Positions 25,344 through 62,843 of a stretch of DNA of 64,000 nt are shown in pieces. Location of the stretch: the NCBI GenBank assembly GCA_041649955.1, contig JBAZMD010000001.1, forward strand, positions 68,079-132,078, in the 5' to 3' direction. The stretch's first letter is position 1. Every line of letters starts with the position of its first letter. Position numbers and translations under genes: made by a program. The DNA comes from Patescibacteria group bacterium. Lineage in GTDB: Bacteria > Patescibacteriota > Patescibacteriia > UBA2591 > JAQUPP01. The notes under the pieces were generated by a model, which saw nothing but the letters and a program-made list of their open reading frames with translations, made no database searches and was not told the origin of the DNA.

Positions 25344-25372
25344 ATAATAGCAAAAATTTTGATTTTTGTCAA
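25344..25372 (-). promoter_or_regulatory. Conserved promoter module (PLP-enzyme gene)
   Basis: ggggaTTGACAaaaatcaaaatttttgcTATTAT. Confidence 0.7.
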
Positions 25373-25376
25373 TCCC

Positions 25377-26237
25377 CTATTTTTGTTCTTCTTGCTTCCT
25401 AGATTGTACAATTATAGCTTTTTCTACTAGTTCAATATCATTAGGAAGTTTCTTCGCTTCAAAGTCGCCATTATTATCTTGTGAACTAATTTTTTCATAA
25501 AGTAACTTTAATCTATTTTGTTTTTCATCAGTAAGATTCCAACCTTTTTTGAAATCTTCCGTAGATAAAGGGATGTCATATCTGTATAAAATTTCGTTTT
25601 TAATAAAACCGGCATTTTTTAATAATTCTAATAAGGCTTGTTCATCTGTGATAAATTTTTCAACTGCTACTTTTTCTGCAATAATCTTTTCCCTTTCTGT
25701 ATAAAGATAATTAGTCATTTGATTATTTCGAACGGCCGGTGAAACTAAAGCGGATAAAATAAGCTTGCCATCATTTTTTAAAACCCTATTCACTTCTGAT
25801 AGAGCTTTTATCTGTAAGGGTTTTGGAAGATAATCTAAAACCTGTTTTATGGTAATTATGTCGACTGATTTATCATTCAGGGGAATGTCAATAATATCCC
25901 CTGGAAGTTTATCATAACCCTTTTTATCAGGAATCTCATTAAGCATGTCTAGATTCCTGTCAATAAAAATTGTTTTAATGTTAATTCCTTTGTCTTTTAA
26001 TTTCTTCTCAAATTCTTTATTAAAAAAATCCCCGCATATTCCGGGACCGCAACCAATATCAGCTAAAATAATTTCTTTTTTCTTAGCTATTTCTTCAAGA
26101 TCTAAACCGCGAAACATATTCTCTAATACGTCTTCTCTGGCCTGATAACCACGCAAGGATTCTCTATAATTTTTTATCCTCCAAGTATCTCTTGAAACAA
26201 TGTCGCCAGTTGAAACTCCTTTTTCAATATTTGTCAT
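25377..26237 (-). CDS. Class I SAM-dependent methyltransferase
   Basis: 286 aa. Motif I ILADIGCGPGICG, then FIDRN and DIITIKQVLDYL. Confidence 0.8.
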   Translation of the reverse strand: MTNIEKGVSTGDIVSRDTWRIKNYRESLRGYQAREDVLENMFRGLDLEEIAKKKEIILADIGCGPGICGDFFNKEFEKKLKDKGINIKTIFIDRNLDMLNEIPDKKGYDKLPGDIIDIPLNDKSVDIITIKQVLDYLPKPLQIKALSEVNRVLKNDGKLILSALVSPAVRNNQMTNYLYTEREKIIAEKVAVEKFITDEQALLELLKNAGFIKNEILYRYDIPLSTEDFKKGWNLTDEKQNRLKLLYEKISSQDNNGDFEAKKLPNDIELVEKAIIVQSRKQEEQK

Positions 26238-26266
26238 AATTTTGATTATATTTAAAAAAAATTAAG

Positions 26267-26614
26267 CTATTTTGAACCGGAATTTAATAAATTTTCAATT
26301 ATAGATAATTTATCTCCTGAAATATTCTTTAAAATTTTTGAGAAATAGTCAGTAGTAACATCATTTGTAACTTTTTTAGTTATGGCTTTAATTTCTTTTT
26401 CAGAATAATTTTCTTTAAGAAAATTATCTATTTCTTCATAGTTGAAATTTCCGTCCTTTGATTTATAACCTTTTTCTGTTAATGCTTCAACAATAATATT
26501 GGTTGATATTAAATCTCCCAATTTCTTTACGCTATTATTAATTTCGCTTTCCGAAAATTCAAGCACATTAAGAATTTTATAAATCTTTTCAATTTCTTCA
26601 GCGGCTATATTCAT
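26267..26614 (-). CDS. Hypothetical protein (115 aa)
   Basis: ORF tightly spaced with its neighbours (25-29 nt gaps). No motif recognised. Confidence 0.55.
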   Translation of the reverse strand: MNIAAEEIEKIYKILNVLEFSESEINNSVKKLGDLISTNIIVEALTEKGYKSKDGNFNYEEIDNFLKENYSEKEIKAITKKVTNDVTTDYFSKILKNISGDKLSIIENLLNSGSK

Positions 26615-26639
26615 ATATTTGTAATGACTAAAAAATTTA

Positions 26640-27065
26640 TTATATTTTTTTTGATTTTTCCATTTTAATTTCTCTGTCCAATTTGATACGTTGAATTGCG
26701 CTCTTTATCCCCTCTGAAAAAATGAGTATTCCCATTCCTGTAACGGATATAGCAAGGGTTTCTGCTGCATGAATTTCCCCTCTTGTTAATGCTTGTCCCA
26801 TAATATTTATCATTTGTTCCTGATTTAAAAATGCTATTCTGGACATTTCTAAACCAGCAAGCGTACTAAGGGTTCCGAAAAATTTAGCAGCCGTATCTTC
26901 CAATTCATGAGGTCTGAGAATATTTAAAACATTTTTTATTTTATCAAAGACAGATTTTTGTTTTTCTTCAAAAAAATCCTTACTTAATTTTTCTGGATTT
27001 TTTTCTTGATCTATTTGTTGTTCCGGAGTTAGTATCTCTTCTGGAATTGGTTTTTCTCCGTTCAT
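26640..27065 (-). CDS. Hypothetical protein (141 aa)
   Basis: ORF with SD GAGGT and a conserved promoter module upstream (27126-27154). No motif recognised. Confidence 0.6.
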   Translation of the reverse strand: MNGEKPIPEEILTPEQQIDQEKNPEKLSKDFFEEKQKSVFDKIKNVLNILRPHELEDTAAKFFGTLSTLAGLEMSRIAFLNQEQMINIMGQALTRGEIHAAETLAISVTGMGILIFSEGIKSAIQRIKLDREIKMEKSKKI

Positions 27066-27125
27066 ATATTTACCTCATTAAGATTGTTTTTAAACAATCT
27101 TTTAATTGATTATTTATCTATTTTC

Positions 27126-27154
27126 AGAATAGCATATTTTAAGGAATTTGTCAA
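27126..27154 (-). promoter_or_regulatory. Promoter module (operon 27065 to 25377)
   Basis: TTGACAaattccttaaaatatgcTATTCT. Confidence 0.65.
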
Positions 27155-27196
27155 TTAACCGTTCAGTTAACGCTAAGGAATGACAATTTCAACTGT

Positions 27197-28095: not shown

Positions 28096-28123
28096 AAAAT
28101 AGCAAAATTTAGTCTTTTGTCAA
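28096..28123 (-). promoter_or_regulatory. Promoter module (methyltransferase 27197-28054)
   Basis: TTGACAaaagactaaattttgcTATTTT. Confidence 0.6.
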
Positions 28124-28133
28124 TGATAAAAAT

Positions 28134-28196: not shown

Positions 28197-28433
28197 TTAA
28201 GCCCATCTTATTGTGGATCCAATTCTGAATCCACATTCTTCCGCTACTGCAGTCGCCTTTTGAAACTCTTCGTTAAATTTTTGTGCTTGAACAAGATCCT
28301 GATTATCACATGCATTCCGAACTTTAAGAGCCATTTCTTTTAATTTCTGTATAACTCTTCCACTGGCACTATTCTGAGGCCAAATTCCAAAGACGGAATG
28401 AAAATTCTTTATATTTAAATAAATTTTTTTCAT
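28197..28433 (-). CDS. Hypothetical small protein (78 aa)
   Basis: Has its own promoter module, SD AGGAGGAAAG and a downstream hairpin terminator. Confidence 0.6.
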   Translation of the reverse strand: MKKIYLNIKNFHSVFGIWPQNSASGRVIQKLKEMALKVRNACDNQDLVQAQKFNEEFQKATAVAEECGFRIGSTIRWA

Positions 28434-28540
28434 CTTTCCTCCTTTTTCCCTTGTTTTTCAAGGGAATTTCTGAAAAATTTGATTTCTTGTTTTTAAACCC
28501 TTGTTATTAAATTACAAAGAACTTTATCTTTTATGTTAAA

Positions 28541-28569
28541 ATAATAGCATATTTTTTGATTTTTGTCAA
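28541..28569 (-). promoter_or_regulatory. Conserved promoter module (78-aa gene)
   Basis: ggggTTGACAaaaatcaaaaaatatgcTATTAT. Confidence 0.7.
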
Positions 28570-30668: not shown

Positions 30669-30817
30669 CCCTCACCCTTCGACGATAATATTCGCCCTCG
30701 TATTTTCCAATTGCCTTTTATAAAATAAAAATAAATTTTCTTGAATCCAGATTAAACTGAATAAATTAGTAAAGACAGGCTCGTATTTGGAAAATAACAT
30801 CGTCGAAGGGTGAGGGA
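30668..30817. repeat. Perfect 19-nt inverted repeat spanning the mpg ribosome-binding region
   Basis: tccctcacccttcgacgat (30668-30686) pairs with atcgtcgaagggtgaggga (30799-30817). A second tier pairs tattttccaa with ttggaaaata. Confidence 0.7.
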
Positions 30818-38225: not shown

Positions 38226-38253
38226 TTGACACATTTTTTAAATATGCTATTAT
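38226..38253 (+). promoter_or_regulatory. Promoter module in + orientation (AsnC-type mini-gene)
   Basis: TTGACAcattttttaaatatgcTATTAT. Confidence 0.7.
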
Positions 38254-38612: not shown

Positions 38613-38781
38613 GGCGAAATTCGCCTGAACGATGTCGCGGAAAAACCTTAGAAAATTAAGGAGTTTTATTGAAAAACTCATCTGTTTGACGACCTATTTG
38701 GGAGGAGTTATGAATTTTTCAGAATAAAACGAATATAATTTTCAAGGATTTAGAGCGTTGAGTGAAGGTGAATTTTGCAAC
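38613..38781. repeat. Intergenic repeat family A, copy 2 (abuts the methyltransferase stop)
   Basis: See copy 1. Starts with the palindrome ggcgaaattcgcc. Confidence 0.8.
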
Positions 38782-38785
38782 ACTT

Positions 38786-39640
38786 TTATTTTTTTCTTAA
38801 TTGATAAATGGTGTAGAATTTGGAAAAAGCGGGATGTTTAACCGGCTCTTTTATTTTTTTAACAATCGTAAAATATTTTTTAACCAGCCGGTCAAACATT
38901 TTTTCCGGCAGCATAGTAACGCGATGCGGCTGATTGTAAAAATCAAAAGTCATTAAATCATATTCTTTTTGAGTGATTTCTTTGTTTTTTAATTTCTCGC
39001 CTAAAAACAGATTAAATTTGTTCATCTCGGTAGTGTATTCTTTCTTGTTGTAAAATCGCGGATCTGAATAAGCGCAGCTTTCCCAAATATAAATTTTATT
39101 ATTCAATGATTTGAAATAATTCGGCTGGCGCTTGCATTTTTCAATCACGCTTTCCGCGGTCTGCAATATCGGACTCGCGTTGGTAACGGTAATAATCAAT
39201 TCTCCTCCCGGTTTCAGAATAGTTTTCATTGCCTTAAAAAATTGTTCGTACAACTCAAGATTGACCAAATTATTGGTTACGGCATGGCCGATAATGCAAT
39301 CAAATGTTTTGGGAAGAAAATATTTTGTCGCTTCTGTCCAAAGACCGTTGGTTATTTTTTCTTTGCTTTCTATTTTTTTTAAACCGTTCATTGTTTCAAC
39401 CATATTTTGGCTGAATTCCAAAAGCGTGACCTTAAATTTCATTTTTGCCAGACAATCCCGAATGGCCGGCGTACAGCCTAAAACCAAGGCCTTATTGCCT
39501 GATTTCTTTTTAATGATTTTTAAAATTTTAGCGCAAGCGGCAATATGCTTTTTTGAAGGCACAAAAGGCGGCGGAATTTTGGCATAGGTTTGAGTATACC
39601 CTTCTTGCCACACTTTTTTATTTATTGCTTCTTTTTCCAT
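38786..39640 (-). CDS. SAM-dependent methyltransferase, paralog family LG.TPE.RD (copy 2 of 3)
   Basis: Motifs ALVLGCTPAIRD, LLEFS, ILKPGGELIITV and tail KKYFTIVKKI. The start is set at ATG 39640, 5 nt after the upstream stop. The ORF-track start at 39673 would overlap the upstream gene by 28 nt. Confidence 0.7.
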   Translation of the reverse strand: MEKEAINKKVWQEGYTQTYAKIPPPFVPSKKHIAACAKILKIIKKKSGNKALVLGCTPAIRDCLAKMKFKVTLLEFSQNMVETMNGLKKIESKEKITNGLWTEATKYFLPKTFDCIIGHAVTNNLVNLELYEQFFKAMKTILKPGGELIITVTNASPILQTAESVIEKCKRQPNYFKSLNNKIYIWESCAYSDPRFYNKKEYTTEMNKFNLFLGEKLKNKEITQKEYDLMTFDFYNQPHRVTMLPEKMFDRLVKKYFTIVKKIKEPVKHPAFSKFYTIYQLRKK

Positions 39641-39645
39641 GTTAG

Positions 39646-40479
39646 TTATTTTTTTAAAAAATAAATTGGGCATTGGTGAACAAAAGGATGATCTGTACCG
39701 TATTTAACGGCAGAAATCTTGAAATATTTTTTCATCATTTTCTCCCCTTCTTTTTCCGGCAGAGTCCACCAAGTTTTGCCCAACGGCCATTGTTGATGAA
39801 AAATCTTAATCAATTTGGCTATTTGCTTTTTTCTGGCCGCGTTCTTTTCATCTTGCCAAGATTTTTTAAGCGCTGAACTGATGCCGTCCGTACTCGTACT
39901 ACTGTCTTTTGCTTTCCAAACAACAAATAATCCGCCATAAGCAAATTCACTGATACTTTCTTGATTAAATTTTTTCTTAATCACGAGATTAATAAATTCT
40001 TGAATTGATTTTTTGGGAAAAATAGGAAAAAGATGGCGGGTAATAAAACAACCGCCCGGCTTTAAAACCTCTCTGATTTTAGCCAAAAATTTCGGCTGTA
40101 ATTTAATCGGAATATTACAAATAACAAAATCTCCCAGAACAAAATCATAATAATTTTGAGCCACGGGCATAGTCAGCCAGCCGGCCTTAATCCAAGTTTC
40201 CTTGTCTGCATTTTTTTGATATTTCACCCATTTGGTCATAGCCATTAGCATATCCAAACTAATATCAACGCAAGTCACTTCTGCTTTTTGGCGATGCACC
40301 AAGTCGCGAAATTCGGGCGTTCCGCCTAAAATCAAAATTTTAGCCGGTTTTTTATGTTGAGCAATGAATTTTTCTATAATCTGGCATTCGCTTTTTGACG
40401 GCCGGTTGGGCGGAGTATAAACTTGCCATTGATGTGCCATTTTTTGCGCGTGATAATAAGCTACTTTTGGTTCTGCCAT
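39646..40479 (-). CDS. SAM-dependent methyltransferase, paralog family LG.TPE.RD (copy 3 of 3)
   Basis: 277 aa. Motifs ILILGGTPEFRD, CVDIS, VLKPGGCFITR and tail KKYFKISAV. Confidence 0.75.
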   Translation of the reverse strand: MAEPKVAYYHAQKMAHQWQVYTPPNRPSKSECQIIEKFIAQHKKPAKILILGGTPEFRDLVHRQKAEVTCVDISLDMLMAMTKWVKYQKNADKETWIKAGWLTMPVAQNYYDFVLGDFVICNIPIKLQPKFLAKIREVLKPGGCFITRHLFPIFPKKSIQEFINLVIKKKFNQESISEFAYGGLFVVWKAKDSSTSTDGISSALKKSWQDEKNAARKKQIAKLIKIFHQQWPLGKTWWTLPEKEGEKMMKKYFKISAVKYGTDHPFVHQCPIYFLKK

Positions 40480-40494
40480 AATTGTCGATTTAGA

Positions 40495-40658
40495 TCCGCC
40501 AACTGGCGGAGAAATAAATTTTCGCTACAATTTATGAGCACCCTGCTTCAAACCTCTAAACAAAATCAGTTCAAAGATAGCGTAAGCCGAAGGCGTTTCC
40601 ATGAATTAAATTAATTATTTTTTCACGAACCTTCTTCGGGTTTGGGGCGTGGGTCGCC
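40495..40658. repeat. Intergenic repeat family B, copy 3
   Basis: ttcgctacaatttatgagcaccctgcttcaaacct ... gtaagccgaaggcgtttcc ... ttcgggtttggggcgtgggtcgcc. Confidence 0.7.
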
Positions 40659-40669
40659 ATAAAATAATT

Positions 40670-41506
40670 TTAATTATATTTTTGAAGAATAAAATAAAAA
40701 TATTTTCTTTTTCCATTTTTAAATGAATTGCATAACTCTGAATCTTTAACTCCCGCGAATTGCTTGCCGAGATTTTGCAAAAATTTCGGCAAAAATTGCC
40801 TAACAAGTTTCATCCTTCTTTCATTATCCAAATTCAATGCCCTAAAAACATTTTCCGTTATATCTTCTTTTTTTATTATTTTCAATTTTGATTTATTAAT
40901 GGAGTCAAAAAAAGATTGAATTAATTCCCGGCTTCTGAAATCGGCGAATAAAAAATATCCTTTAGGTTTTAATATTCTTTTCGCTTCCTGTAAAAATTTA
41001 TTAAAATTAGGGTAAGAATGAGAAGATTCTATGTTTATCGCCGCGTCAAAACTTTCATCTTCAAAAGGAATTTTTATGGCGTTTCCGTATTCAAATTTTA
41101 AATTTTTTTCATAATGATGCTCTCTGTCAAATTTTATTTCTGCTTTGGAATTATCTATGCCGACGATCAGTTTGGGCTTGAAATATCTGGCAATGAAAGA
41201 AGTTCCGCCGCCCTTCCCGCATCCTACTTCTAAAACTTTTTTATCTTTTATATTAATAGAACTCACTACCTTATGATACAACTGGGCGCAATATCTGTTT
41301 TCTTCATCAATTTTTTCCAATCTTAATTTTTCCCGGTATTGATATCCGTAATTCAAAAAAATCACCTCTCCTTTTGAATCAATTTTTGAAAGATGATTAT
41401 ACCACTTATTCACCACTAAAGACTGGCCCTTAAGATAAATCTTGTTGACTAAATTAAAAAAATTTAATATCTTTATTAATTTTTTAATCCAATCTTTCTT
41501 CGTCAT
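40670..41506 (-). CDS. Class I SAM-dependent methyltransferase (Methyltransf_11-like)
   Basis: 278 aa. Motif I VLEVGCGKGGGTSFIA, then VGIDNS, FDAAINIESSHSY and ILKPKGYFLFADF. Confidence 0.8.
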   Translation of the reverse strand: MTKKDWIKKLIKILNFFNLVNKIYLKGQSLVVNKWYNHLSKIDSKGEVIFLNYGYQYREKLRLEKIDEENRYCAQLYHKVVSSINIKDKKVLEVGCGKGGGTSFIARYFKPKLIVGIDNSKAEIKFDREHHYEKNLKFEYGNAIKIPFEDESFDAAINIESSHSYPNFNKFLQEAKRILKPKGYFLFADFRSRELIQSFFDSINKSKLKIIKKEDITENVFRALNLDNERRMKLVRQFLPKFLQNLGKQFAGVKDSELCNSFKNGKRKYFYFILQKYN

Positions 41507-41513
41507 ATATTTT

Positions 41514-42962: not shown

Positions 42963-42980
42963 AATTTAATTTTAAATTAT

Positions 42981-43925: not shown

Positions 43926-43945
43926 ATATTTTTATTTTAATTTAT

Positions 43946-45397: not shown

Positions 45398-46868
45398 TGT
45401 TTAAATGTTTTAAAATTTTAACAATTCCCCTGTTCGCATCCACCTCCACCAAATCCCCGTTACGTAATGTCCCTGTTAAACCGTGAATTCCTACTATACA
45501 AGGTGTTTTCAACTCTCGCGAAACAATGGCCGCATGAGAAGTGATACCACCCCTTTCGGTTAAAATCGCTTTTGCTTGCTTCATAAGAAAGATATAATCC
45601 GGCGTAGTGTGGGAGGCAACCAATATAGCTCCCTTTTTAAATTTAGAAAAATCTCTTTCTGATTTTATAATTAAAACTTGGCCGATAACGTTTCCAGGAT
45701 AAACGGCTGCCCCGCAAAGAACCTTTTTCTTTTCTTGGCGCAATAAAATTGATCTTATTTTCAGAGCTGACTCACCTTCTAATAATGAGTAATCTTTATC
45801 AATCCCCAAAAAGATAATGGTGGATTTTTGTCTTTTTTTAATAAGATTTAAAAAATTATTTTTATTTTTTAAATTTATCTGCAACTGCTCTTCCCAAGTT
45901 AACCATCTGAATTTTTCGTAATCCAGCGCATAATTTTTTGCCACTCTTTTAAGCCAAGTCTTAATGGGTATTGTTGTTTGTAAATTAAAAGCTTTTCTTT
46001 GGTCTCTTAATTTATACAGAATATCAAGAAAATTAATCAATTTTTTAATATTTTCAGGTTTTGTTTTTAAAATTTTTCTCTTCTTTTTTCTTTGTTTTTC
46101 CGAACATTTTATTTTTTCCCACTCATTTTTAAAATTCTGTGCCAAATCTATACCATGTTCTATAAATAAAATTTCTTTTGGCAAAGCGTGCGACTTAAAA
46201 TTTAAAAATACCCAACCCCATTTTTGAGCGTGAAAAATAATTTTTTTACTTAAAATCTCATATTTTGCCAAATCTCGTACTCCGCTTTTTAGCTTTTTAA
46301 ATTCTTCAGACGGCAAACTTTTAATCAATTCTAATAAATTTTTATGTTCTTCCATTACAAAAGAGTCCTGTAAGGGCGTCATCAGCAACATTAATTCTTT
46401 CTCGTCTTTAATGGTTTCTTTGATTTTTATTTCCAAATATTTTTCAACAGCTTCACAGGTATTCATTAATAAAGCCATCCACTTCTGAATAACTTCTACA
46501 AAATTCGTATATATTTTTTTGTCTATCTTTGCTGATTTTTCTAATCTATCAAGAGCTTGCCAATTTTTTTTCGTCAGATTAATAAATTCTTTTTCTAATT
46601 GAATTGGATTATTCTTATATTTCAAATAAAATACCTGGCCCAATTTTAATAATGATTTTTTATCCAAACAATAATAAAAAGAATCTTTGTCATAAATTTG
46701 AATTAATTTAGCGCAGATTCCAAACATTTTTTTCTGAAGAGTACAGCTTCTCTTAAAACCCAAGTCCGTCCACCAAAAAAAATCAGCGTCATATTTGCCG
46801 ATTTCAAGATCGTCTTTTATCTTTTTTATTTTATTGATAAAGCTAGACACAAGTTTCTTTTCGGACAT
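45390..46868 (-). CDS. Unknown ~380-aa N-domain fused to a C-terminal PEP-utilizer mobile (swivel phospho-His) domain, paralog A
   Basis: 492 aa. C-terminus GAILVASHTTPDY...GGITSHAAIVSRELKTPCIVG...NGDLVEVDANRG. Overlaps the next gene by 8 nt. Confidence 0.8.
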   Translation of the reverse strand: MSEKKLVSSFINKIKKIKDDLEIGKYDADFFWWTDLGFKRSCTLQKKMFGICAKLIQIYDKDSFYYCLDKKSLLKLGQVFYLKYKNNPIQLEKEFINLTKKNWQALDRLEKSAKIDKKIYTNFVEVIQKWMALLMNTCEAVEKYLEIKIKETIKDEKELMLLMTPLQDSFVMEEHKNLLELIKSLPSEEFKKLKSGVRDLAKYEILSKKIIFHAQKWGWVFLNFKSHALPKEILFIEHGIDLAQNFKNEWEKIKCSEKQRKKKRKILKTKPENIKKLINFLDILYKLRDQRKAFNLQTTIPIKTWLKRVAKNYALDYEKFRWLTWEEQLQINLKNKNNFLNLIKKRQKSTIIFLGIDKDYSLLEGESALKIRSILLRQEKKKVLCGAAVYPGNVIGQVLIIKSERDFSKFKKGAILVASHTTPDYIFLMKQAKAILTERGGITSHAAIVSRELKTPCIVGIHGLTGTLRNGDLVEVDANRGIVKILKHLNND

Positions 46869-48700: not shown

Positions 48701-48728
48701 AATATATACCTTTTTAGATAATTGTCAA
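48701..48728 (-). promoter_or_regulatory. Promoter for the RRM protein gene (about 135-nt structured leader)
   Basis: TTGACAattatctaaaaaggtaTATATT. Confidence 0.6.
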
Positions 48729-53001: not shown

Positions 53002-53238
53002 TTATTTAATTAATTCTGTTAATTTATCAAGTTTTTTATGAAACACGGAAACAATCTTGCCGAATTGATTGCTCGGAATAAGAATTATTGTTTCTGCCGG
53101 AGTCAAAAAAGCCACCAGCTTATCGCCGCTTTTTATTTTCAATTTTTTGCGGATTTCGGCCGGAACTACAATCTGTCCCCGTTCGCCGACTGTGGCGGTA
53201 TCAAAACAAATTATGCTTTCAAAAAAATCTTTTTTCAT
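53002..53238 (-). CDS. AbrB/SpoVT-family DNA-binding protein
   Basis: 78 aa with the swapped-hairpin motif GERGQIVVPAEIRKKLKIKSGDKL. Lies 18 nt upstream of hlyD. Confidence 0.8.
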   Translation of the reverse strand: MKKDFFESIICFDTATVGERGQIVVPAEIRKKLKIKSGDKLVAFLTPAETIILIPSNQFGKIVSVFHKKLDKLTELIK

Positions 53239-53288: not shown

Positions 53289-53316
53289 ATTATAGCTAAT
53301 CTAAAATCTTCGTCAA
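53289..53316 (-). promoter_or_regulatory. Promoter for the abrB-hlyD-ABC operon
   Basis: gtgggggTTGACGaagattttagattagcTATAAT. The -35 box is embedded in the arm of an inverted repeat. Confidence 0.65.
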
Positions 53317-53436
53317 CCCCCACACCAAACTTAGCGCTTGATTTACATATTATAAAAGTCGTAAGACGGAAGCCGCTTCGCTCTTATCTCTTCATATTAA
53401 AAAAGCCTTACGTTGAGTTGTGGTGTGGGGGTCAAC
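53311..53436. repeat. Inverted repeat with C-rich and G-rich arms around the abrB promoter region
   Basis: cgtcaacccccacaccaaac (53311-53330) pairs with gttgtggtgtgggggtcaac (53417-53436). An internal cgtaag/cttacg pairing is also present. Confidence 0.6.
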
Positions 53437-53464
53437 CCCTCTGTGGACAAATTACAAATAACTC

Positions 53465-53507
53465 TAACAAAATAAATAGGGGTGAGAGAACTTGTCTCAC
53501 ACCCCCC
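53465..53507 (-). terminator. Intrinsic terminator closing the orphan transcript
   Basis: ggggtgtgaga-caagt-tctctcacccc, followed by tatttatttt. Confidence 0.6.
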
Positions 53508-53693
53508 TGGAGGATAACAGTGTATAAAGCTGTTATATCGATATTAGTGTTTTAAGGCGGTATTCCCCTATAATGGGACATGAGGACCTCCTATTTTTAG
53601 CAATTTAGGTAGCGCTCAAATTTGATCCCTTTCAGGATCTGGCTAGCGCTAAGCCATTGCTTTCATAAAAACCACCTCCTTTATATTATGATA
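53465..53693 (-). ncRNA. Candidate ~225-nt small transcript (promoter to terminator, no real ORF)
   Basis: Bounded by the TTGACA-N16-TATACT promoter and a hairpin plus U-run. Contains several hairpins (gatcc-tgaaa-gggatc, ataacag...ctgttat, AGCGCT palindromes) and two SD-led micro-ORFs (MKAMA at 53649-53666, MSHYRGIPP at 53552-53581). Confidence 0.4.
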
Positions 53694-53699
53694 TAAACG

Positions 53700-53727
53700 A
53701 GTATATCACATTTTAAAATTTTGTCAA
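53700..53727 (-). promoter_or_regulatory. Orphan promoter with no protein gene downstream
   Basis: TTGACAaaattttaaaatgtgaTATACT. Confidence 0.6.
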
Positions 53728-53733: not shown

Positions 53734-54135
53734 TTATTTAATTTTATCCACATTTCCATTGAGAATAATCGGTTTCATCGCTTCTATTTCATCCGTATAA
53801 TTCATTTTGGGAATCTGGTTTAATAAAAATATCTTTTTATTCAAGATATGCGCAAAAGCCATTTCTATCAAACTATTGCCGCCGATATAATTTTTAATAC
53901 CTTGCTTGTCTTTATTAATAACCAGTATCGCGTCGCACTTTTTTATTTCTTCAAAATATTCTTTAAAAACATCACCTTCAATTTTTGACCATTTATCTTC
54001 ATGATTAACTTCACCCTCGGCGTATTTTAAAATATCCTTTGGTGCAATCGCAATTAATCCTTTTGCTTCAAGGATTTTTTGAGTTTCCAATATTTCTTTT
54101 GAAAAGGCAATACTGCCGCAAATCGCAATTTTCAT
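53734..54135 (-). CDS. Small Rossmann-like protein, possibly nucleoside 2-deoxyribosyltransferase-like
   Basis: 133 aa counted from ATG 54135 (MKIAICGSIAFSKEILETQKILEAKG...). The -10 box is 6 nt from the ATG. The 32 extra upstream codons in the ORF track run through a long inverted repeat and were trimmed. Confidence 0.55.
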   Translation of the reverse strand: MKIAICGSIAFSKEILETQKILEAKGLIAIAPKDILKYAEGEVNHEDKWSKIEGDVFKEYFEEIKKCDAILVINKDKQGIKNYIGGNSLIEMAFAHILNKKIFLLNQIPKMNYTDEIEAMKPIILNGNVDKIK

Positions 54136-54169: not shown

Positions 54170-54230
54170 CCCCACCACCAAGAAATTATACTTCGCGTTA
54201 AAAAAATATAATTTCTAGGTGGCGGGGTCA
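54166..54230. repeat. Miniature (65-nt) member of the same hairpin family
   Basis: tccaccccaccaccaagaaattata ... tataatttctaggtggcggggtca. About 19 of 21 arm positions are complementary. Confidence 0.65.
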
Positions 54231-54281: not shown

Positions 54282-54695
54282 TTATATACTCGCTATTTGG
54301 ATATTTAGCTCTTCCTGTTGTCTTCTTAGTGTGTCTCTAGCTTGAAAAACTAGAGAATTCTTATCTTCAATTCTAACCTTATTCAAAGATAAAGTTGAAG
54401 AGTTCTCAACAGAATTGACCGGTTTTACTATATTCACCTTTAGAATATTGAATTCGATTTTTCCAATCTCTTTTTTTACCGGTTTTACTAAAACCTGCGA
54501 AACTAATTCAACGGGCTGAGCAACGGTAGATAAATCATTATTACTTATCTCTATACTCATCGGCAATACTTCTGGCATTGTTGTTACCTTGCTTACAACC
54601 GGTGTAAATTTGTTTTCCAAATTTGTAGTAGAAGCATAAGCTCCTATGGCAGTAAACACAACAACAACTAACAGAATTTTTTGAAATTTATTCAT
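54282..54695 (-). CDS. Hypothetical secreted or membrane-anchored protein (137 aa)
   Basis: N-terminal hydrophobic helix KILLVVVVFTAIGAYA. SD GGGAGG, promoter module and terminator present. Confidence 0.6.
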   Translation of the reverse strand: MNKFQKILLVVVVFTAIGAYASTTNLENKFTPVVSKVTTMPEVLPMSIEISNNDLSTVAQPVELVSQVLVKPVKKEIGKIEFNILKVNIVKPVNSVENSSTLSLNKVRIEDKNSLVFQARDTLRRQQEELNIQIASI

Positions 54696-54784
54696 TTAAG
54701 ACCTCCCGTCTTATTAGTTTTGCGAATCCTTTCTTTTTAGCCCGGATTCGCTTCGGCTATTTACAAAGAACTATTGTGTTATAT

Positions 54785-54812
54785 ATAATAGCATATTTTT
54801 GAATTTTGTCAA
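54785..54812 (-). promoter_or_regulatory. Conserved promoter module (137-aa gene)
   Basis: gagggggTTGACAaaattcaaaaatatgcTATTAT. Confidence 0.7.
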
Positions 54813-54962
54813 CCCCCTCACATGTGGAAAACCATAAAGGGCATACTGTCTTTCGTTTTTTTATATATACACTGATTTTATCTTATCTATATGCTTATTT
54901 TTAACTTTATGCCTATTAAACTGTAATTTCCAAGAAAGACAATGGTTTTCCTTGTGAGGGGG
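54813..54962. repeat. MITE-like hairpin element with a C-rich and a G-rich arm, full-length copy (opposite orientation)
   Basis: Arms ccccctcacatgtggaaaaccat and atggttttccttgtgaggggg. Interior blocks match the reverse complement of the 19066-19222 interior. Confidence 0.75.
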
Positions 54963-55029: not shown

Positions 55030-55473
55030 CTATTCTTTTAGCTTCTTCATCCATGCCTTTAAACATTCTTCTACTTTTGGAAAGTCCTGAAACGTTGTGT
55101 TATCAGGACAGGAGATAATAATGACCATACTCTTACGTTCTATGACCGGATGCACCAGAACGCACATATCTTCCATGTCAAAGATGTTAAATTGATCATT
55201 ATCAATATCCCCAACATTTACATATGAAGCTGTCTTCCTGTGCTGCTTATACTGAAAAGTAAGAATAATGCCGGTATCTCGCGCAACTTTAGGATTTAAA
55301 ACTTCATAATCCATTATCTCTTCAATTTTCTCGGCTCCATAGAACATCAACTTGCCCACTTTTATTTTCCGCTGCTCTAATAAAATATATTTAAGCGCGG
55401 GAATATTATTCAGCTCCTCATCTATCTTTTCCGAATCTACTAATACATTATTCACTGCTGTTGTTGCGCCCAT
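55030..55473 (-). CDS. Hypothetical protein (147 aa)
   Basis: SD AGGGGGGG, promoter module and terminator present. No motif recognised. Confidence 0.6.
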   Translation of the reverse strand: MGATTAVNNVLVDSEKIDEELNNIPALKYILLEQRKIKVGKLMFYGAEKIEEIMDYEVLNPKVARDTGIILTFQYKQHRKTASYVNVGDIDNDQFNIFDMEDMCVLVHPVIERKSMVIIISCPDNTTFQDFPKVEECLKAWMKKLKE

Positions 55474-55527: not shown

Positions 55528-55555
55528 ATTATAGCATATTTTTGATTTTTGTCAA
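55528..55555 (-). promoter_or_regulatory. Conserved promoter module (147-aa gene)
   Basis: TTGACAaaaatcaaaaatatgcTATAAT. Confidence 0.7.
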
Positions 55556-55815: not shown

Positions 55816-55843
55816 AGCATAGCATAAAATTGAGAAATGTCAA
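55816..55843 (-). promoter_or_regulatory. Promoter-like element (69-aa gene)
   Basis: TTGACAtttctcaattttatgcTATGCT. The choice of -10 box is ambiguous. Confidence 0.45.
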
Positions 55844-55897: not shown

Positions 55898-55926
55898 TTG
55901 ACAAAAATCGGAAAATATGATATTTT
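55898..55926 (+). promoter_or_regulatory. Conserved promoter module in + orientation (158-aa gene)
   Basis: tccccatatggggacTTGACAaaaatcggaaaatatgaTATTTT, preceded by a 14-nt palindrome with a C arm and a G arm. Confidence 0.7.
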
Positions 55927-55996
55927 AAATGTATATAAATCAGTTATTTGAAAACCAAAAAAAAGTAAGAAGTAAAGAAAGAAGGAGGAGGTGAAC

Positions 55997-56473
55997 ATGT
56001 TTAATTTATTGGTGGCAGCAATGCTTATAGCCGCTCCCAAGACATATACAGTTCAAGGGGGTCCGGGACTTAGTTGCGACGGTTTCATATTTAGGGGTTC
56101 GGTAGACTACGGAAAGGTTGGTCTACAAATTTCGGAGTCCATATATTACAACATCGAGAAGAGTTACAACTTTCTTCACAGAGCAGAGTTCAGAACACTG
56201 CTTACCGGGACTGATTGTGACTATTTCTTTGTAGGGGGAGCTATCAATGAAACCAAAGGAAAGATTCCTACTACTGGTGTGGGAATAAGTGCCGGAGTGG
56301 GAGGTAGATTCACTTCTTGGTTCATTATAGAAGTGGGTCTTATCTGGGAAGTGTTCGGGGAATTCGGCGGAACATACAAATATGTATGTGACCGCAATTC
56401 ATTTGATAACTCATCCAGTAATAAATCAAAGTACGGTTGCATTTTCAATGTAACTGTTCCTCTGATAAGGTGA
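55997..56473 (+). CDS. Hypothetical secreted Gly-rich beta-type protein (158 aa)
   Basis: ATG 55997 follows GGAGGAGG. Signal-like MFNLLVAAMLIAAP. The same promoter module is present in + orientation, with a strong hairpin terminator downstream. Confidence 0.6.
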   Translation: MFNLLVAAMLIAAPKTYTVQGGPGLSCDGFIFRGSVDYGKVGLQISESIYYNIEKSYNFLHRAEFRTLLTGTDCDYFFVGGAINETKGKIPTTGVGISAGVGGRFTSWFIIEVGLIWEVFGEFGGTYKYVCDRNSFDNSSSNKSKYGCIFNVTVPLIR

Positions 56474-56573: not shown

Positions 56574-56969
56574 TTATATTTGACATCCGGGATATCGCTC
56601 TGTGGGGATTCTTTCCCCGCCATTGTGATTTTGCGTCATTGCAATCTTTCGTTCAATGTTATCGCACCTTATACATTGAACACTGCCAAGTTTTTGAACC
56701 AATCGCAGAAATATACAGCAATCTTTCCCTCTGCCTCCTCCGCATTTTTTGATGTCGGTGATCTTTATTTCTTTTTCAAGTTCTATAACTTTCAGTTCAT
56801 CAGTTTTTACCGCTATTGCCGCAATAATGCCATCTCCAAAAAACAACACCGCTGTTTCGTCCAAATTGCAATGAGAAAATACACCTTGTATCGGACCTAC
56901 TAAATTACCACAACTGATACCTTCCATTCCTTTATAGGATACTACTGTTTGTTTCGGAATTTGTTCCAT
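56574..56969 (-). CDS. Hypothetical Cys-rich protein (131 aa)
   Basis: SD GGAGGTGGG. C-terminal Cys pattern KKCGGGRGKDCC...CIRCDN...PGCQI. No family recognised. Confidence 0.6.
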   Translation of the reverse strand: MEQIPKQTVVSYKGMEGISCGNLVGPIQGVFSHCNLDETAVLFFGDGIIAAIAVKTDELKVIELEKEIKITDIKKCGGGRGKDCCIFLRLVQKLGSVQCIRCDNIERKIAMTQNHNGGERIPTERYPGCQI

Positions 56970-57034: not shown

Positions 57035-57063
57035 ATTTAAGCAAATTTTTTGATTTTTGTCAA
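57035..57063 (-). promoter_or_regulatory. Conserved promoter module (Cys-rich 131-aa gene)
   Basis: ggggTTGACAaaaatcaaaaaatttgcTTAAAT. Confidence 0.65.
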
Positions 57064-57825: not shown

Positions 57826-57899
57826 AATTTAATTTTGCTTATAATATTTTATATTTTTAGTATAGCAAATTTAAATAAAAAAATATAGCAGCTTGTTTT

Positions 57900-57938
57900 G
57901 AATAAATTTTAAATGGGGAAAAGCTTTTGCCTTTCCCC
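57900..57938 (-). terminator. Hairpin terminator after the 140-aa gene
   Basis: A 10-bp stem ggggaaaggc/gcttttcccc with an AAAA loop. Confidence 0.6.
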
Positions 57939-57952
57939 ATTTCCTTCAATTA

Positions 57953-58375
57953 TTATTTTCTAAATGTCAGAGAAGAGAAGAAAGCAGGCAAGGCCTCAAT
58001 AATACGGCGCCGAAAATCAGCCTCTACTTCTAAAAATGGTTTCTCTTCTTGGATAGCCACTTTTAACATCCCGAATGTATTACCAATTAGAGCTCGGTGA
58101 CCCATTTCGTCTTCTACTTCCTTAAGTTCATCCTGATATTTCTGAAGTCCTAATTTGATGCTCATTACCAAACCATCTATCCTGGCAGGCTGATTTGAGA
58201 ATTTAACAATTTGCAAGACCTGGTATATATGTTTTAAGGTATCTTCCTGAATCCGCTTAACTTCTACTGTATAAAAATTACTATTTTTTTGGGCTAACCT
58301 TAATACATCTTGTTCTCTTTCCAGAATTTCTTTTATCTCTTCCCACTGTTTTTGATAAAGAACTTCTTTGCTCAT
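57953..58375 (-). CDS. Hypothetical helical protein (140 aa)
   Basis: Start moved to ATG 58375, 6 nt after GGGGGTG. The ORF-track GTG at 58384 abuts the SD. Promoter and terminator present. Confidence 0.6.
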   Translation of the reverse strand: MSKEVLYQKQWEEIKEILEREQDVLRLAQKNSNFYTVEVKRIQEDTLKHIYQVLQIVKFSNQPARIDGLVMSIKLGLQKYQDELKEVEDEMGHRALIGNTFGMLKVAIQEEKPFLEVEADFRRRIIEALPAFFSSLTFRK

Positions 58376-58405
58376 TTCAATCACCCCCTTTTTTTAATTA
58401 TTTAA

Positions 58406-58434
58406 AATATATCATAATTTTTACTTTTTGTCAA
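58406..58434 (-). promoter_or_regulatory. Promoter module (140-aa gene)
   Basis: TTGACAaaaagtaaaaattatgaTATATT. Confidence 0.65.
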
Positions 58435-58475
58435 GACATTTTTGAATAATAAAAAAAGATTTAAAGAATCTAGTT

Positions 58476-60914: not shown

Positions 60915-60986
60915 CTCCCACCTCCTTGTGGTTAAATTTAATTTTTTTCAATGAACAACTATTCCTCCTTTAATTTAATTATTTAT

Positions 60987-61015
60987 ATATTAATTTATTT
61001 TTTGGAAAATGTCAA
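60987..61015 (-). promoter_or_regulatory. Promoter (585-aa HExxH gene)
   Basis: TTGACAttttccaaaaaataaatTAATAT. Confidence 0.6.
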
Positions 61016-61077
61016 TATCAAAAAAAGACATTATTACTGCAGGTATTATTGATTGCACGAAAACCATTTGAATAAAT

Positions 61078-61114
61078 TTTGAATAATAATACCGGGTTAA
61101 TCGCTTAACCCGGT
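61078..61114 (-). terminator. Hairpin after the 130-aa gene (weak U-tract)
   Basis: accgggttaagcgattaacccggt. Confidence 0.45.
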
Positions 61115-61130
61115 AAATACTTATTTTTTA

Positions 61131-61523
61131 TTACGCCCACCTGAAAGCGGAATTTTCCAACTTCGCAATATCCTCTTTTGAGAGAACGGTCATAACCGGT
61201 CTTTCACCCCAATCAGGATTAGAAATACTGAGATATTCCAGAGAAATAGCCTGCTTACTATCGGGACTAACGAGAAGCGGCAATTCTTTTATCTCATTCC
61301 TTGTTTTCGGAAGTTTTTTAAGCACTTCCGGAAATAAACTGCAATCAGCGCAGAAAAACGGCTCATGCGACTTATGACCATTAAGCTTTACAAGAGCAGG
61401 AAGGAAACTTCCCATACCGTGTTTTTTCTCTATCAATCCACCTTTGACAATCCTCCAGCCATTAAGCTTTACGCCCTGCAATTCGCCTAATTTTTTAGGG
61501 TACTCATTTTTTAAATTTTTCAT
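61131..61523 (-). CDS. Hypothetical protein (130 aa)
   Basis: SD GAAGGAGG, promoter 61545-61573 and a hairpin downstream. Confidence 0.6.
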   Translation of the reverse strand: MKNLKNEYPKKLGELQGVKLNGWRIVKGGLIEKKHGMGSFLPALVKLNGHKSHEPFFCADCSLFPEVLKKLPKTRNEIKELPLLVSPDSKQAISLEYLSISNPDWGERPVMTVLSKEDIAKLENSAFRWA

Positions 61524-61544
61524 CTTTACCTCCTTCTAGATAAA

Positions 61545-61573
61545 AAGATAACATAAAAATATTTTTTTGTCAA
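61545..61573 (-). promoter_or_regulatory. Promoter (130-aa gene)
   Basis: TTGACAaaaaaatatttttatgtTATCTT. Confidence 0.6.
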
Positions 61574-61589
61574 TATCAAAAAAAGCCCT

Positions 61590-61943
61590 CTATGAAGGCT
61601 CTTTTTTAAAAATTTGCTTTTGTGCCAACAATAAACTTATTAATACTAAAATATTTAAAATCAGAGAAATGACATCAAAAATACCGACTTCATCTGTTAT
61701 TGATAATATTGCGTTAAATAGGGAGAAAATAATTGAGAATACGAAAATTATTTTAATTCTTTTTATTAATCCAAAAAGCGCAATGGCAAAAAATAAGGGT
61801 TCAAGAAATAATAATATTTTAAGTATTAAATAATTTTCGTAGGAAGCAAATTTAAAAAATGAAAAATAAACGGCGATTATGCTCCAAAAAATAATGCTTA
61901 TTATCAGAAGTATCTTGCATAAAATTAAAGGAAAAAATTTCAT
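61590..61943 (-). CDS. Hypothetical polytopic membrane protein (117 aa)
   Basis: Four hydrophobic helices. Lies 17 nt downstream of the previous membrane-protein gene. Confidence 0.55.
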   Translation of the reverse strand: MKFFPLILCKILLIISIIFWSIIAVYFSFFKFASYENYLILKILLFLEPLFFAIALFGLIKRIKIIFVFSIIFSLFNAILSITDEVGIFDVISLILNILVLISLLLAQKQIFKKEPS

Positions 61944-61960
61944 AATTTTAACTTTCGGCT

Positions 61961-62299
61961 TTATTTTTTTCTAAAAACTTTAATTTCTGAAAGATATTTT
62001 CTGCTCAAAAAAAGAGCGCCCAGTATAATAGCCGGAATAGATATGATCATTGATTCAAAACGGGAAAGAATAAGCATCAATAATCCAATGATAAGAAAAA
62101 TAAATCCTCCCAGTCGCTCATGTTTCCATGCAACGATAATCAGTATAAGCAAAGCAAATGACGGCAATAAATGCATAAAAAGAGGTAGAATAACTCTCCA
62201 GCCGCTGTATTCAGAAAACACATCAAGCGAAAACAAAGATAAAAATACGACAAATCCAATGCTTAAAATTCTCGGCAGCCAATAAATAATTTTATTCAT
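61961..62299 (-). CDS. Hypothetical polytopic membrane protein (start uncertain; the ORF extends to 62434)
   Basis: From ATG 62299 it reads MNKIIYWLPRILSIGFVVFLSLF... with four TMs. Upstream in-frame codons overlap a promoter-like TTGTTA-N16-TATGAT (62334-62361) and lie only 33 nt from the terminator of the preceding gene. Confidence 0.5.
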   Translation of the reverse strand: MNKIIYWLPRILSIGFVVFLSLFSLDVFSEYSGWRVILPLFMHLLPSFALLILIIVAWKHERLGGFIFLIIGLLMLILSRFESMIISIPAIILGALFLSRKYLSEIKVFRKK

Positions 62300-62467
62300 A
62301 TGATTAATATATTTATTTATAAAGATTGATTTAATCATAGCAAAAATGGAAAAAATAACAAGGTGAAATAAAATAGCGAATCTACGTTTGGTATTATAAA
62401 TTTTAATTATTCCATTCCTACAATTTGGCCTCATTTGGAAACCGCGGCTTTAATTTAATAAAGATTA

Positions 62468-62501
62468 AAAAAACCGCCCTAATTTTCATTAGTGGCGGTT
62501 T
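62468..62501 (-). terminator. Intrinsic terminator after the 80-aa membrane gene
   Basis: aaaccgccactaa-tgaaaa-ttagggcggttt, followed by ttttt. Confidence 0.7.
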
Positions 62502-62515
62502 AAATTCGAATTTAA

Positions 62516-62758
62516 TTACATTTTAAGAAATGTCCATCCATACTTTACAAACATGCCTATCATAGCCAGGATACTTCCAAAAACCATTCCGATTCCGGCG
62601 ATACAGGTAACATTGAATGATTGATGAAATTTGGCCCAATCTTTTATAATTGGCCAGTAGCTCCCTTTTACTCCGTCTGTGAACATTGAGATAGCGAATA
62701 CTATGAATGAAAGTATCAGTATACCCAAACCCATCTTAACGAGAAAAAAATTAGTCAT
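62516..62758 (-). CDS. Hypothetical small membrane protein (80 aa)
   Basis: Start set at ATG 62758 after AAGGGGGAG (MTNFFLVKMGLGILILSFIVFAI...). The upstream ORF-track codons cover the promoter module at 62815-62843. Confidence 0.6.
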   Translation of the reverse strand: MTNFFLVKMGLGILILSFIVFAISMFTDGVKGSYWPIIKDWAKFHQSFNVTCIAGIGMVFGSILAMIGMFVKYGWTFLKM

Positions 62759-62814
62759 CTCTCCCCCTTTATTGCTTTTTAAAAAACTATTGTTAGTTTT
62801 TATATTATATTTAA

Positions 62815-62843
62815 ATAATAGCACATTTTTCACTTTTTGTCAA
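62815..62843 (-). promoter_or_regulatory. Promoter module (80-aa membrane gene)
   Basis: TTGACAaaaagtgaaaaatgtgcTATTAT. Confidence 0.65.

Follow-up and report, generated by a model that had tools for sequence, protein, structure and literature searches.

Introduction

The sigmaA promoters of low-GC Gram-positive bacteria, as described in the literature on Bacillus subtilis, possess an extended −10 element, or −16 region, of the form TRTGn-TATAAT. Exchangeable genes may be organized in units consisting of promoter, open reading frame (ORF) and terminator, such as the phage morons and the cassettes of flexible islands, or they may lie, as in the Pc/attI platform of integrons, behind a fixed promoter. 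Among small mobile elements, the Correia elements of Neisseria are promoter-bearing miniature inverted-repeat transposable elements (MITEs), further short palindromes being those of the REPIN/RAYT type and those derived from IS200/IS605, and there are target-specific elements that depend on HUH transposases. To our knowledge, there is almost no experimental information on the transcription signals of Patescibacteria, a lineage that cannot be grown alone, and a loose full-text literature query returned nothing relevant to their promoters among the best-ranked 15 of 2,071 papers. The present study is focused on a stretch of 64,000 nucleotides (nt) from a Patescibacteria group bacterium (contig JBAZMD010000001.1, positions 68,079 to 132,078; hereafter the window), in which a promoter module of near-identical sequence recurs in front of mutually unrelated genes.

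Nearly all promoters of the window resemble the low-GC Gram-positive sigmaA promoters in having TTGACA, a spacer of 16–17 bp, T-17, T-15, G-14 and a TATAAT-like −10 hexamer, and this likeness to the extended −10 or −16 region explains the right half of the spacer that an initial annotation of the window had reported as conserved. They differ in belonging to a member of the Patescibacteria, in the additional C-13, in the G-run upstream of the −35 and in the existence of a sub-class that is marked by AAAATC and a leader box. On the whole, the module looks like an unusually uniform yet otherwise ordinary bacterial promoter family, and not like a new kind of element.

Six copies of the core module

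Six promoters of the window share the sequence TTGACA-AAAATCAAAAA-(A)TATGC-TATTAT. They are listed below with the short names used in the text:

25344–25372, minus strand: core copy 25372, GGGGA-TTGACA-AAAATCAAAATTTTTGC-TATTAT, promoter of the gene 23839–25290 for a pyridoxal phosphate (PLP)-dependent enzyme (483 aa)
28541–28569, minus strand: core copy 28569, GGGG-TTGACA-AAAATCAAAAAATATGC-TATTAT, promoter of the 78-aa ORF 28197–28433, with a leader of 107 nt
54785–54812, minus strand: core copy 54812, GGGGG-TTGACA-AAATTCAAAAATATGC-TATTAT, promoter of the gene for the 137-aa protein 54282–54695
55528–55555, minus strand: core copy 55555, TTGACA-AAAATCAAAAATATGC-TATAAT, promoter of the 147-aa ORFan 55030–55473
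57035–57063, minus strand: core copy 57063 with an off-consensus −10, GGGG-TTGACA-AAAATCAAAAAATTTGC-TTAAAT, before the 131-aa Cys-rich ORF 56574–56969
55898–55926, plus strand: core variant 55898, GGGGAC-TTGACA-AAAATCGGAAAATATGA-TATTTT, promoter of the gene for the 158-aa protein 55997–56473

All six, including the single plus-strand copy, are found where the initial annotation had placed them. Its five near-identical spacers are present as well, with the corrections that copy 25372 has a deviating right spacer half (TTTT) and that the −10 region of copy 57063 is off consensus (TGC-TTAAAT). Five of the six copies thus combine a −35 close to TTGACA with a −10 close to TATAAT at a distance of 16–18 bp, the exception being 57063 (TTAAAT), whereas copy 55555 matches the two hexamers at 12 of 12 positions and has the TG in addition. 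The plus-strand copy is immediately preceded by a hairpin, CCCCATATGGGG.

The genes behind the module show no similarity to each other by BLASTP, so that tandem gene duplication was rejected as the origin of the promoter likeness. The description of these genes as unrelated therefore stands, but not all of them are small, the one driven by copy 25372 encoding the 483-aa PLP enzyme. The 137-aa protein 54282–54695 has a hydrophobic segment at its N-terminus, and a homolog search with the 147-aa protein 55030–55473 returned its self-match only.

The module and the sites resembling it are strongly enriched. The window contains 15 sites of the form TTGACA-N16-18-TATNNT (0.76 expected), seven sites with at most two mismatches to the 17-mer TTGACAAAAATCAAAAA (0.50 expected; shuffle maximum 3) and three of GGGGTTGACA (0.03 expected). 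All curated sites face an ORF with a Shine-Dalgarno sequence 9–107 nt downstream, and an independent consensus scan ranks the same promoter sites highest. With the enrichment of the −35 and −10 hexamers and the position of the ORFs, their promoter-like character, already proposed from the first reading, is supported; from their anatomy, they are assigned to the housekeeping-sigma (sigma70/sigmaA-type) promoters with an extended −10. Since the window segment 48.4–60.1 kb is present at 100% identity in an independent assembly (ENA ERZ27247363) and a 912-bp piece of the window at 100% identity in the Logan assembly SRR8542065, the repeated modules are not an assembly artefact.

Concerning the leader of the 78-aa ORF (28434–28540, minus strand), it contains CAAGGG...CCCTTG...CAAGGG, which makes alternative hairpins possible directly upstream of the Shine-Dalgarno sequence. 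It may be a regulatory leader; a comparison of this segment with Rfam gave no match.

A discrete sub-family within the promoter design of the lineage

The general design was derived from two small samples, i.e. 21 curated promoters of the window, of the sigma70 type with an extended −10, and 31 promoters on contigs of relatives or of further related Patescibacteria, which had not been picked out by means of the search pattern. Within the window set, T-17 and T-15 are each present in 18 of 21, G-14 in 19 of 21 and C-13 in 13 of 21 promoters, and A occupies the spacer positions 8–11 in 16–18 of the 21, forming an A-tract from −22 to −18. Both the T-17/T-15/G-14/C-13 pattern and the A-tract occur in nearly all promoters, those of housekeeping genes included, and the same holds for the 31 comparison promoters. 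The right half of the spacer and the A-tract, being common to most promoters, therefore fall within sigma recognition. The lineage design can be summarized as follows: a stretch rich in G directly precedes the −35 hexamer TTGACA, the A/T spacer contains the A-tract at about −22 to −18, and T-17/T-15/G-14/C-13, TATwAT and an A/T discriminator complete the promoter. The same design is also found before RNA genes: only 4 nt separate a promoter TTGACA-N17-TGC-TATTAT from the RNase P RNA (Rfam RF00010, 101.8 bits) at 7495–8021 of the contig L136, which belongs to an extra 10-kb flank examined from the organism of the window, and in the relative L095 the design lies just upstream of a probable tRNA gene, recognised by eye only.

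The left half of the spacer behaves differently. Its consensus in the 31 comparison promoters reads AATTTTAAAAA and not AAAATCAAAAA; a hand calculation from the comparison frequencies gives about 0.12 promoters expected among the 21 with at most one mismatch to AAAATCAAAAA, as against five seen. In the same way, 11 promoter pairs differ by at most one mismatch, compared with 1.5 expected from column shuffles, and none of 5000 shuffles reaches 11. The claim that the spacer is conserved beyond the needs of sigma70 thus has to be divided: the near-identity exceeds the general profile of the lineage, but about half of the conserved spacer consists of the −16/extended −10 element (TnTGC) and the A-tract.

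The similarity extends beyond what had been described: at a distance of 12–19 nt behind the −10, four of the six copies possess a box, AGTT(C/A)(T/G)TTG(T)AA with the consensus AGTTyTTTGTAA, which had been missed. A loose pattern of this leader box has only 12 matches in the window on both strands. The four boxes are:

28512–28523, minus strand: leader box AGTTCTTTGTAA, 17 nt after the −10 of copy 28569
54761–54772, minus strand: leader box AGTTCTTTGTAA, 12 nt after the −10 of copy 54812, conserved in the relatives L034 and L114
55498–55508, minus strand: leader box variant AGTTCGTTGAA, 19 nt after the −10 of copy 55555
55942–55953, plus strand: leader box variant AGTTATTTGAAA, 15 nt after the −10 of copy 55898

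The copies 28569 and 54812 have the GGGG, the module and AGTTCTTTGTAA in common, although the genes behind them are unrelated. Judged by sequence, the six copies form a discrete sub-family of about 65 nt within the general design—reflecting neither mere composition nor a property of every promoter—with the AAAATC directly after the −35 and the leader box as its markers. An antisense or bidirectional promoter behind the leader box was considered and rejected: the geometry fits copy 54812 (plus strand TTTACA-N18-TATAAT) and fails at 28569, where the spacing is too long.

All six copies are confined to two flexible islands, at 25.3–28.6 kb and 54.8–57.1 kb, where they precede monocistronic units. 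The organism does not use one and the same spacer throughout: no promoter with AAAATC was found in 35 kb of housekeeping DNA, there being no copy of the sub-family in the first 25 kb of the window (1–25 kb) or in the further 10 kb of housekeeping flank, and the signature is lacking at RNase P RNA, lysS and greA, the housekeeping genes whose promoters were examined. The independent consensus scan also yielded 19 terminator-like hairpins (6.7 expected), with terminators behind each small gene, and therefore each small gene at 53–63 kb appears to be a transcription unit of its own.

Fixed promoters and variable genes among strains

The close relatives compared, L034, L114 and L065, share about 87–93% nucleotide identity with the window, L124 being a relative with 81% identity. 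In the comparison with L034, L114 and L065, the orthologs of the module-bearing genes exhibit 26–77% amino-acid identity, as against 91–100% for the neighbouring genes. The synonymous divergence (dS) from L034 and L114, calculated for the genes 54282–54695, 55030–55473, 55997–56473 and 56574–56969, amounts to 0.8–3.2 versus 0.18–0.42 for the neighbours; being 3–10 times higher, it indicates that the module genes are replaced alleles and not merely fast-evolving proteins. The variability of the module-bearing genes among related genomes, suggested as a check in the initial annotation, is thus found both in the orthologs and in dS. Signal-peptide-like N-termini are encoded by two of these four genes as well as by an extra gene found in L034 and L114 only.

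The promoters themselves behave otherwise. In the window, L034 and L114, the promoter 54812 together with about 220 nt upstream and the first ~35 nt of the leader is ~96% identical, whereas the coding sequence 54282–54695 behind it is only 31–64% identical in L034/L114, the divergence climbing gradually from the leader into the coding sequence. The orthologs of copy 55555 in L034 and L114 have TTTTTTGAAAA(A) instead of AAAATCAAAAA, i.e. a 7-nt block difference, and an unrelated upstream sequence; they retain TTGACA and the −10, and in L034 only also the first leader bases. This difference between the window and its relatives is interpreted as a recombination junction inside the promoter. The ortholog of 55898 in L034 reads AAAATCAAAAAATA, the difference being GG versus AA, and the module 57063 is retained in L034 and L065 with AAGAAC replacing GGGG. 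L124 has an ortholog of 25372 that retains the −35, the −10 and the leader, and in which the spacer is AAAAGCCTAATTTTTGC, the core reading AGCCT instead of ATCAA. At orthologous sites, the AAAATC signature is therefore not kept rigidly, and the promoters mark the exchangeable part of the genome. A portable promoter spreading with its genes, as once suggested for the module, is not supported by these data: the comparison of the copies reveals neither terminal repeats nor any similarity upstream of the GGGG, and in the best-resolved cases it is the promoter that is fixed and the coding sequence behind it that is replaced.

With regard to the first island, L124 has the genes on both sides (giant surface protein ... 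PLP enzyme, histidine kinase) but lacks the 25.3–28.6 kb region between them. The window segment 25300–28640, compared with 6851–10000 of L124, carries five small genes, for two methyltransferases and three hypothetical proteins, with three module-type promoters between a 521-aa protein and the PLP gene; L124 has a 403-aa protein and a sigma70-family gene in their place. The second island, at 54.8–57.1 kb, is a row of small hypothetical genes adjoining tRNA-Gln. This tRNA gene (62897–63234 region) lies beside an 84-aa GIY-YIG-like protein at the border of the small-gene island.

Gain or loss of a whole unit was seen for a cassette with a looser promoter:

58406–58434, minus strand: promoter of the cassette gene 57953–58384

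The corresponding promoter-ORF-terminator unit 57953–58434 is wholly absent from L034 (9717–9738) and L065 (1590–1611), and the slot at 57883–58468 is occupied in L114 (5326–5741) by a different unit on the opposite strand; the core copies, instead, keep the promoter and have the ORF replaced. A homolog of this ORF is located behind a similar promoter and leader in the contig L066, and a promoter and leader of this kind also occur in L009.

The window genes therefore resemble the morons, as they are monocistronic, with their own promoter and terminator, and as the unit 57953–58434 is present or absent among strains with another unit in the slot of L114; unlike morons, they have no phage genes nearby, and the core copies keep the promoter while the ORF changes. 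The likeness to the integron Pc/attI platform is one of functional analogy only, i.e. a fixed promoter and exchangeable coding sequences, whereas here each gene has its own promoter, the divergence is gradual without a fixed crossover point, and there are no attC-type core sites; nor did the scanned proteins of the window include an integrase domain. The idea of cassettes with integron-like or site-specific boundaries was rejected because the indel of the 57953 cassette has no TTGAC, core-site or GTTRRRY-type boundary.

Palindromic elements at the −35 boxes

A G-run at most 7 nt upstream of the −35 is present in seven of the 21 window promoters and is common in the relatives too, so that the GGGG belongs in part to the general promoter features of the lineage. 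At two promoters at least, 53316 and 54812, it is formed by the terminus of a palindromic insertion element. The elements of the window, with the promoter and the gene adjoining the first of them, are:

53317–53430, minus strand: 114-nt palindromic element, CCCCACACC...GGTGTGGGGG, with flanking TTGAC direct repeats, the right one being the −35 of promoter 53316
53289–53316, minus strand: promoter of the AbrB-family gene, GGGGG-TTGACG-N16-TATAAT, its −35 abutting the palindromic insertion element
53002–53238, minus strand: AbrB-family DNA-binding domain protein of 78 aa without a toxin partner, the sole candidate promoter-binding regulator seen in the window
54813–54962, minus strand: 150-nt palindromic element, CCCCCTCACAAGG...CCACATGTGAGGGGG, left flank TTGGC, right flank TTGAC
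54170–54227, minus strand: short palindromic element, CCCGCCACC...GGTGGTGGGG, with TTGAC on one side and, on the other, TGGACA, the −35 in the promoter of gene 53734–54135
19071–19217, minus strand: palindromic element, CCCCACCACAAGGAAATTAT..., with flanking CTTG repeats, abutting a TTGCTT −35-like hexamer upstream of 18816–19034
30669–30816: palindromic element of the same architecture

The right end of the element 54813–54962 provides the GGGGG of the core copy 54812, and the site 54170–54227 is occupied by 71- and 133-nt versions in L034 and L114. Six more such elements were seen on other contigs (~5935–6005 in L034, ~1750–1861 in L054, ~2953–3210 in L059, and ~30–140 and ~1266–1399 in L114). 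By our own count, nine of ten independent elements abut a −35 hexamer with a correctly spaced −10. Members of the family are 60–150 nt long, have the form CCCC...GGGG with TTGAC-type flanks and are polymorphic between strains, several of them with a central GCGAAG; their ends differ among the copies yet stay complementary. No palindrome was found upstream of the copies 25372, 28569 and 57063.

The element 53317–53430 allows a direct comparison, since L034 lacks it and has a clean empty site, GGGGTTGAC. The spacer and −10 of the promoter 53316 are present in both the filled and the empty state, with the element boundary at TTGAC, and therefore the promoter is the target and not the cargo. The palindromes are classified here as putative MITE/REPIN-like elements. 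Like those of REPIN/RAYT and IS200/IS605, they are short, dispersed, hairpin-forming and strain-polymorphic, with a fixed short flank (TTGAC); unlike these and the Correia elements, they sit against the −35 without carrying a promoter, their ends differ among copies yet are complementary, and no transposase for them, including one of the Y1/HUH type, was seen in the window.

There is also a dispersed intergenic repeat of ~170 bp, present at 3100–3270 and 38614–38794 of the window and at about 10831–11014 of L009 and 7076–7227 of L095, the copies being 90–94% identical. With its internal inverted repeats and GCGAATTTCGC ends, it is probably another MITE; the search of 3040–3300 in Rfam gave no match.

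Occurrence in other genomes

Searching one genome each of 185,579 species, the strict module had five single matches in unrelated taxa. The looser pattern occurs in 116 metagenome stretches from very diverse organisms, almost all with one copy per contig, and at least eight of the 116 are from the clade of the window (samples Ga0265297 and Ga0172379); ten single pattern matches come from viral contigs. Dispersed copies were found in the window, six within 64 kb, and in a related genome in Ga0265297, which has at least six more on separate contigs. The identical 17-mer is present twice each on L031 and L011, which are otherwise without nucleotide similarity to the window, L031 sharing a distant protein match with it.

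On the Patescibacteria contig L066, at 160–4100, four small genes unrelated to one another likewise follow near-identical promoter-leader sequences, here in a style of their own, with TTGACA-AGAG(C/T)(C/T)A... and the leader ATTAATAAT. Promoters being more similar within a genome than between genomes would be expected from copying or conversion, i.e. concerted evolution; co-adaptation to a genome-specific factor could match this pattern as well.

Further promoters and gene content of the window

The remaining promoters of the general design include:

1413–1440, plus strand: general-design promoter, TTGACA-N16-TGC-TATAAT
4762–4790, minus strand: general-design promoter of lysS, TTGATA-N17-TGT-TATAAT
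5421–5448, minus strand: general-design promoter of greA, GGGGAT-TTGACT-N16-TGC-TATAAT
27126–27154, minus strand: general-design promoter, spacer AATTCCTTAAAATATGC
28096–28123, minus strand: general-design promoter, spacer AAAGACTAAATTTTGC
38226–38253, plus strand: general-design promoter of the gene for an 80-aa Lrp/AsnC ligand-domain protein
53700–53727, minus strand: general-design promoter, spacer AAATTTTAAAATGTGA
55816–55843, minus strand: general-design promoter, divergent from 55898, spacer TTTCTCAATTTTATGC
61545–61573, minus strand: general-design promoter
62815–62843, minus strand: general-design promoter, spacer AAAAGTGAAAAATGTGC
63326–63353, minus strand: general-design promoter, TTGCCA-N16-TGT-TATAAT

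The list of looser versions given in the initial annotation has to be revised at both ends: its site 60987 lacks the TGn and has a poor −10 (TAATAT), and six similar promoters had been overlooked (4762–4790, 5421–5448, 48701–48728, 53289–53316, 55816–55843 and 63326–63353). The promoter 53727 is predicted to give a transcript of ~200 nt (53440–53700, minus strand), which is conserved, 93% identical in L034, and contains mini-ORFs only (MKAMA* followed by a 9-codon ORF); its end is a terminator-like hairpin at 53482–53500.

The window, with a GC content of ~0.35 and almost all genes on the minus strand, encodes alr (alanine racemase), serS (SerRS), lysS (LysRS), greA, PBP2, MreC and a histidine kinase. 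Because of these genes and of the absence of any nucleotide match among 50,697 phage records, a phage origin was rejected and the window is regarded as cellular DNA. The closest relatives of its LysRS are from Patescibacteria, with 98–99% identity. Two proteins of ~2,300 aa contain immunoglobulin-like, lectin-type and other beta-sandwich repeat domains, one of them with an N-terminus resembling pilins of type IV secretion systems. At 38786–46868, three genes for class-I S-adenosylmethionine methyltransferases are clustered with four genes for proteins with phosphoenolpyruvate-utilising/PPDK domains, further methyltransferases being located outside this cluster at 25377, 27197 and 57079. In the Rfam scan of the window, only tRNA-Gln reached the gathering threshold.

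Discussion

Based on the above comparisons, the recurrent module may be understood as a strong housekeeping-sigma promoter that forms a unit with its leader, the copies of this unit having arisen by copying or become uniform by homogenisation inside the genome, and that functions as a fixed socket for the expression of accessory genes which can be exchanged; we consider the chances of this interpretation to be about even. It draws on the promoter-like anatomy and position of the sites, on the sub-family structure, on the restriction to accessory islands and on the conservation of the promoter as against the hypervariable cargo. The promoter-leader unit would be copied or recombined within the genome, so that the sub-family would arise and stay uniform by concerted evolution, selection for strong constitutive expression would act alongside the copying, and the promoter would stay as the socket, the coding sequence behind it being exchanged by recombination between strains.

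Several points weigh against this interpretation. The promoter function of the sites, like their assignment to a housekeeping sigma factor, is read from their anatomy. The contigs of the relatives were found by means of the search pattern and the sites matching it were then excluded, so that the comparison profile is biased against the module. The copies 54812, 55898 and 57063 have been retained at orthologous sites across ~9% genome divergence, and there is less variation among the copies in the left 16 nt than at the positions −19 to −16; both observations fit a functional constraint—an operator or a contact of RNA polymerase—as well as they fit copying. The presence of the 17-mer on L031 and L011 makes convergence on the module sequence possible. 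Descent beyond the functional elements leans mainly on the leader box, and this box could itself be functional.

If the constraint were regulatory, AAAATCAAAAA, perhaps with the leader box, would be the site of one regulator, overlapping the core promoter and co-repressing the accessory genes. Such a shared operator seems unlikely to us, although there are two candidate sites for it, a TTGA-N6-TCAA dyad (FixK/FNR-like) and an A-tract site for the AbrB-family protein 53002–53238. The dyad occurs at nine sites (2.2 expected), six of them inside promoters; the AbrB-family domain is clearly encoded (TIGR01439, 52.8 bits versus a cut-off of 28.3); and the operator would account for the higher uniformity of the left 16 nt, for the second common box at +12 to +19 in four of six copies and for the alternative allele TTTTTTGA at the orthologs of 55555, which is the reverse complement of TCAAAAAA. 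Yet the signature is missing at the orthologs of 25372 (L124) and 55555 (L034, L114) with the rest of the promoter kept, and the ease with which AAAATC is lost there argues against a strongly constrained operator. Moreover, the right half-site is not conserved, spacer position 7 being A in nine and T in nine of the 21 promoters, no CRP/FNR-type protein is present among the window proteins, and repression would be the only effect open to a site centred at about −28 of a consensus promoter. For the AbrB sites of the chromosome, WAWWTTTWCAAAAAAW has been put forward as a consensus in the past, but according to the same paper none accounts adequately for the binding of AbrB (PMC3025583), and the resemblance of the module to an AbrB site is therefore only a lead. 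The other form of constraint, i.e. pure convergence, would mean that the strongest promoters of the genome were each selected toward one optimum of RNA polymerase, aided by the A-rich composition, with neither copying nor a regulator involved. Most positions of the module are indeed majority states of the general promoter profile, and the same sequence occurs as single promoters in unrelated bacteria and phages as well as twice each on L031 and L011. Work on sigma70 of E. coli reports sensing of the spacer at single positions near −18 (PMC3130263); the spacer can thus matter to RNA polymerase and its conservation need not imply a regulator, whereas an 11-nt near-identical block is not predicted by that work. 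In addition, the independent promoters have majority states other than those of AAAATC at spacer positions 3, 4 and 6, the positions are correlated beyond the profile, the strong housekeeping promoters (RNase P RNA, lysS and greA) lack the signature, and a leader box common to 28569 and 54812 is improbable by chance; we therefore doubt that convergence explains the module on its own.

The module could also belong to a small mobile element of the MITE or Correia type, from which it would direct transcription outward and with which it would move, as might be supposed from the strain-polymorphic palindromes with their flanking TTGAC repeats, which abut the −35 in nine of ten examined cases and one of which provides the GGGGG of copy 54812. 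This is, however, very unlikely, since in the one clean comparison of a filled and an empty site the spacer and −10 belong to both states, three copies (25372, 28569 and 57063) have no upstream palindrome, and the copies share no sequence upstream of the GGGG and have no terminal repeats bounding the promoter.

Returning to the socket interpretation, it can be combined with the behaviour of the palindromes in a joint proposal, which we advance with considerable reserve as a rather improbable one: (1) the promoter-leader unit would be a recombination and expression socket that swaps divergent alleles of small, partly secreted proteins, an integrase-free analogue of the integron platform; and (2) the palindromic MITE/REPIN-like elements would target the −35 (TTGAC), each insertion regenerating the −35, so that promoters would be safe landing sites. 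The promoter type as such is already known; the sub-family structure, its restriction to hypervariable cassettes in a genome of the candidate phyla radiation and the palindromes at the −35 represent variations worth recording.

The window offers an information-rich promoter model for annotating transcription units in Patescibacteria genomes. Its near-identical promoter-leader sub-class marks a flexible, quickly replaced part of the genome, in which genes for host interaction may be included, and the small palindromic element with insertions exactly at −35 boxes is worth noting. Should the ideas of a socket and of targeting fail, an ordinary family of strong promoters would be left; if they are true, a very small genome with few regulators would keep its accessory genes strongly expressed while exchanging them.

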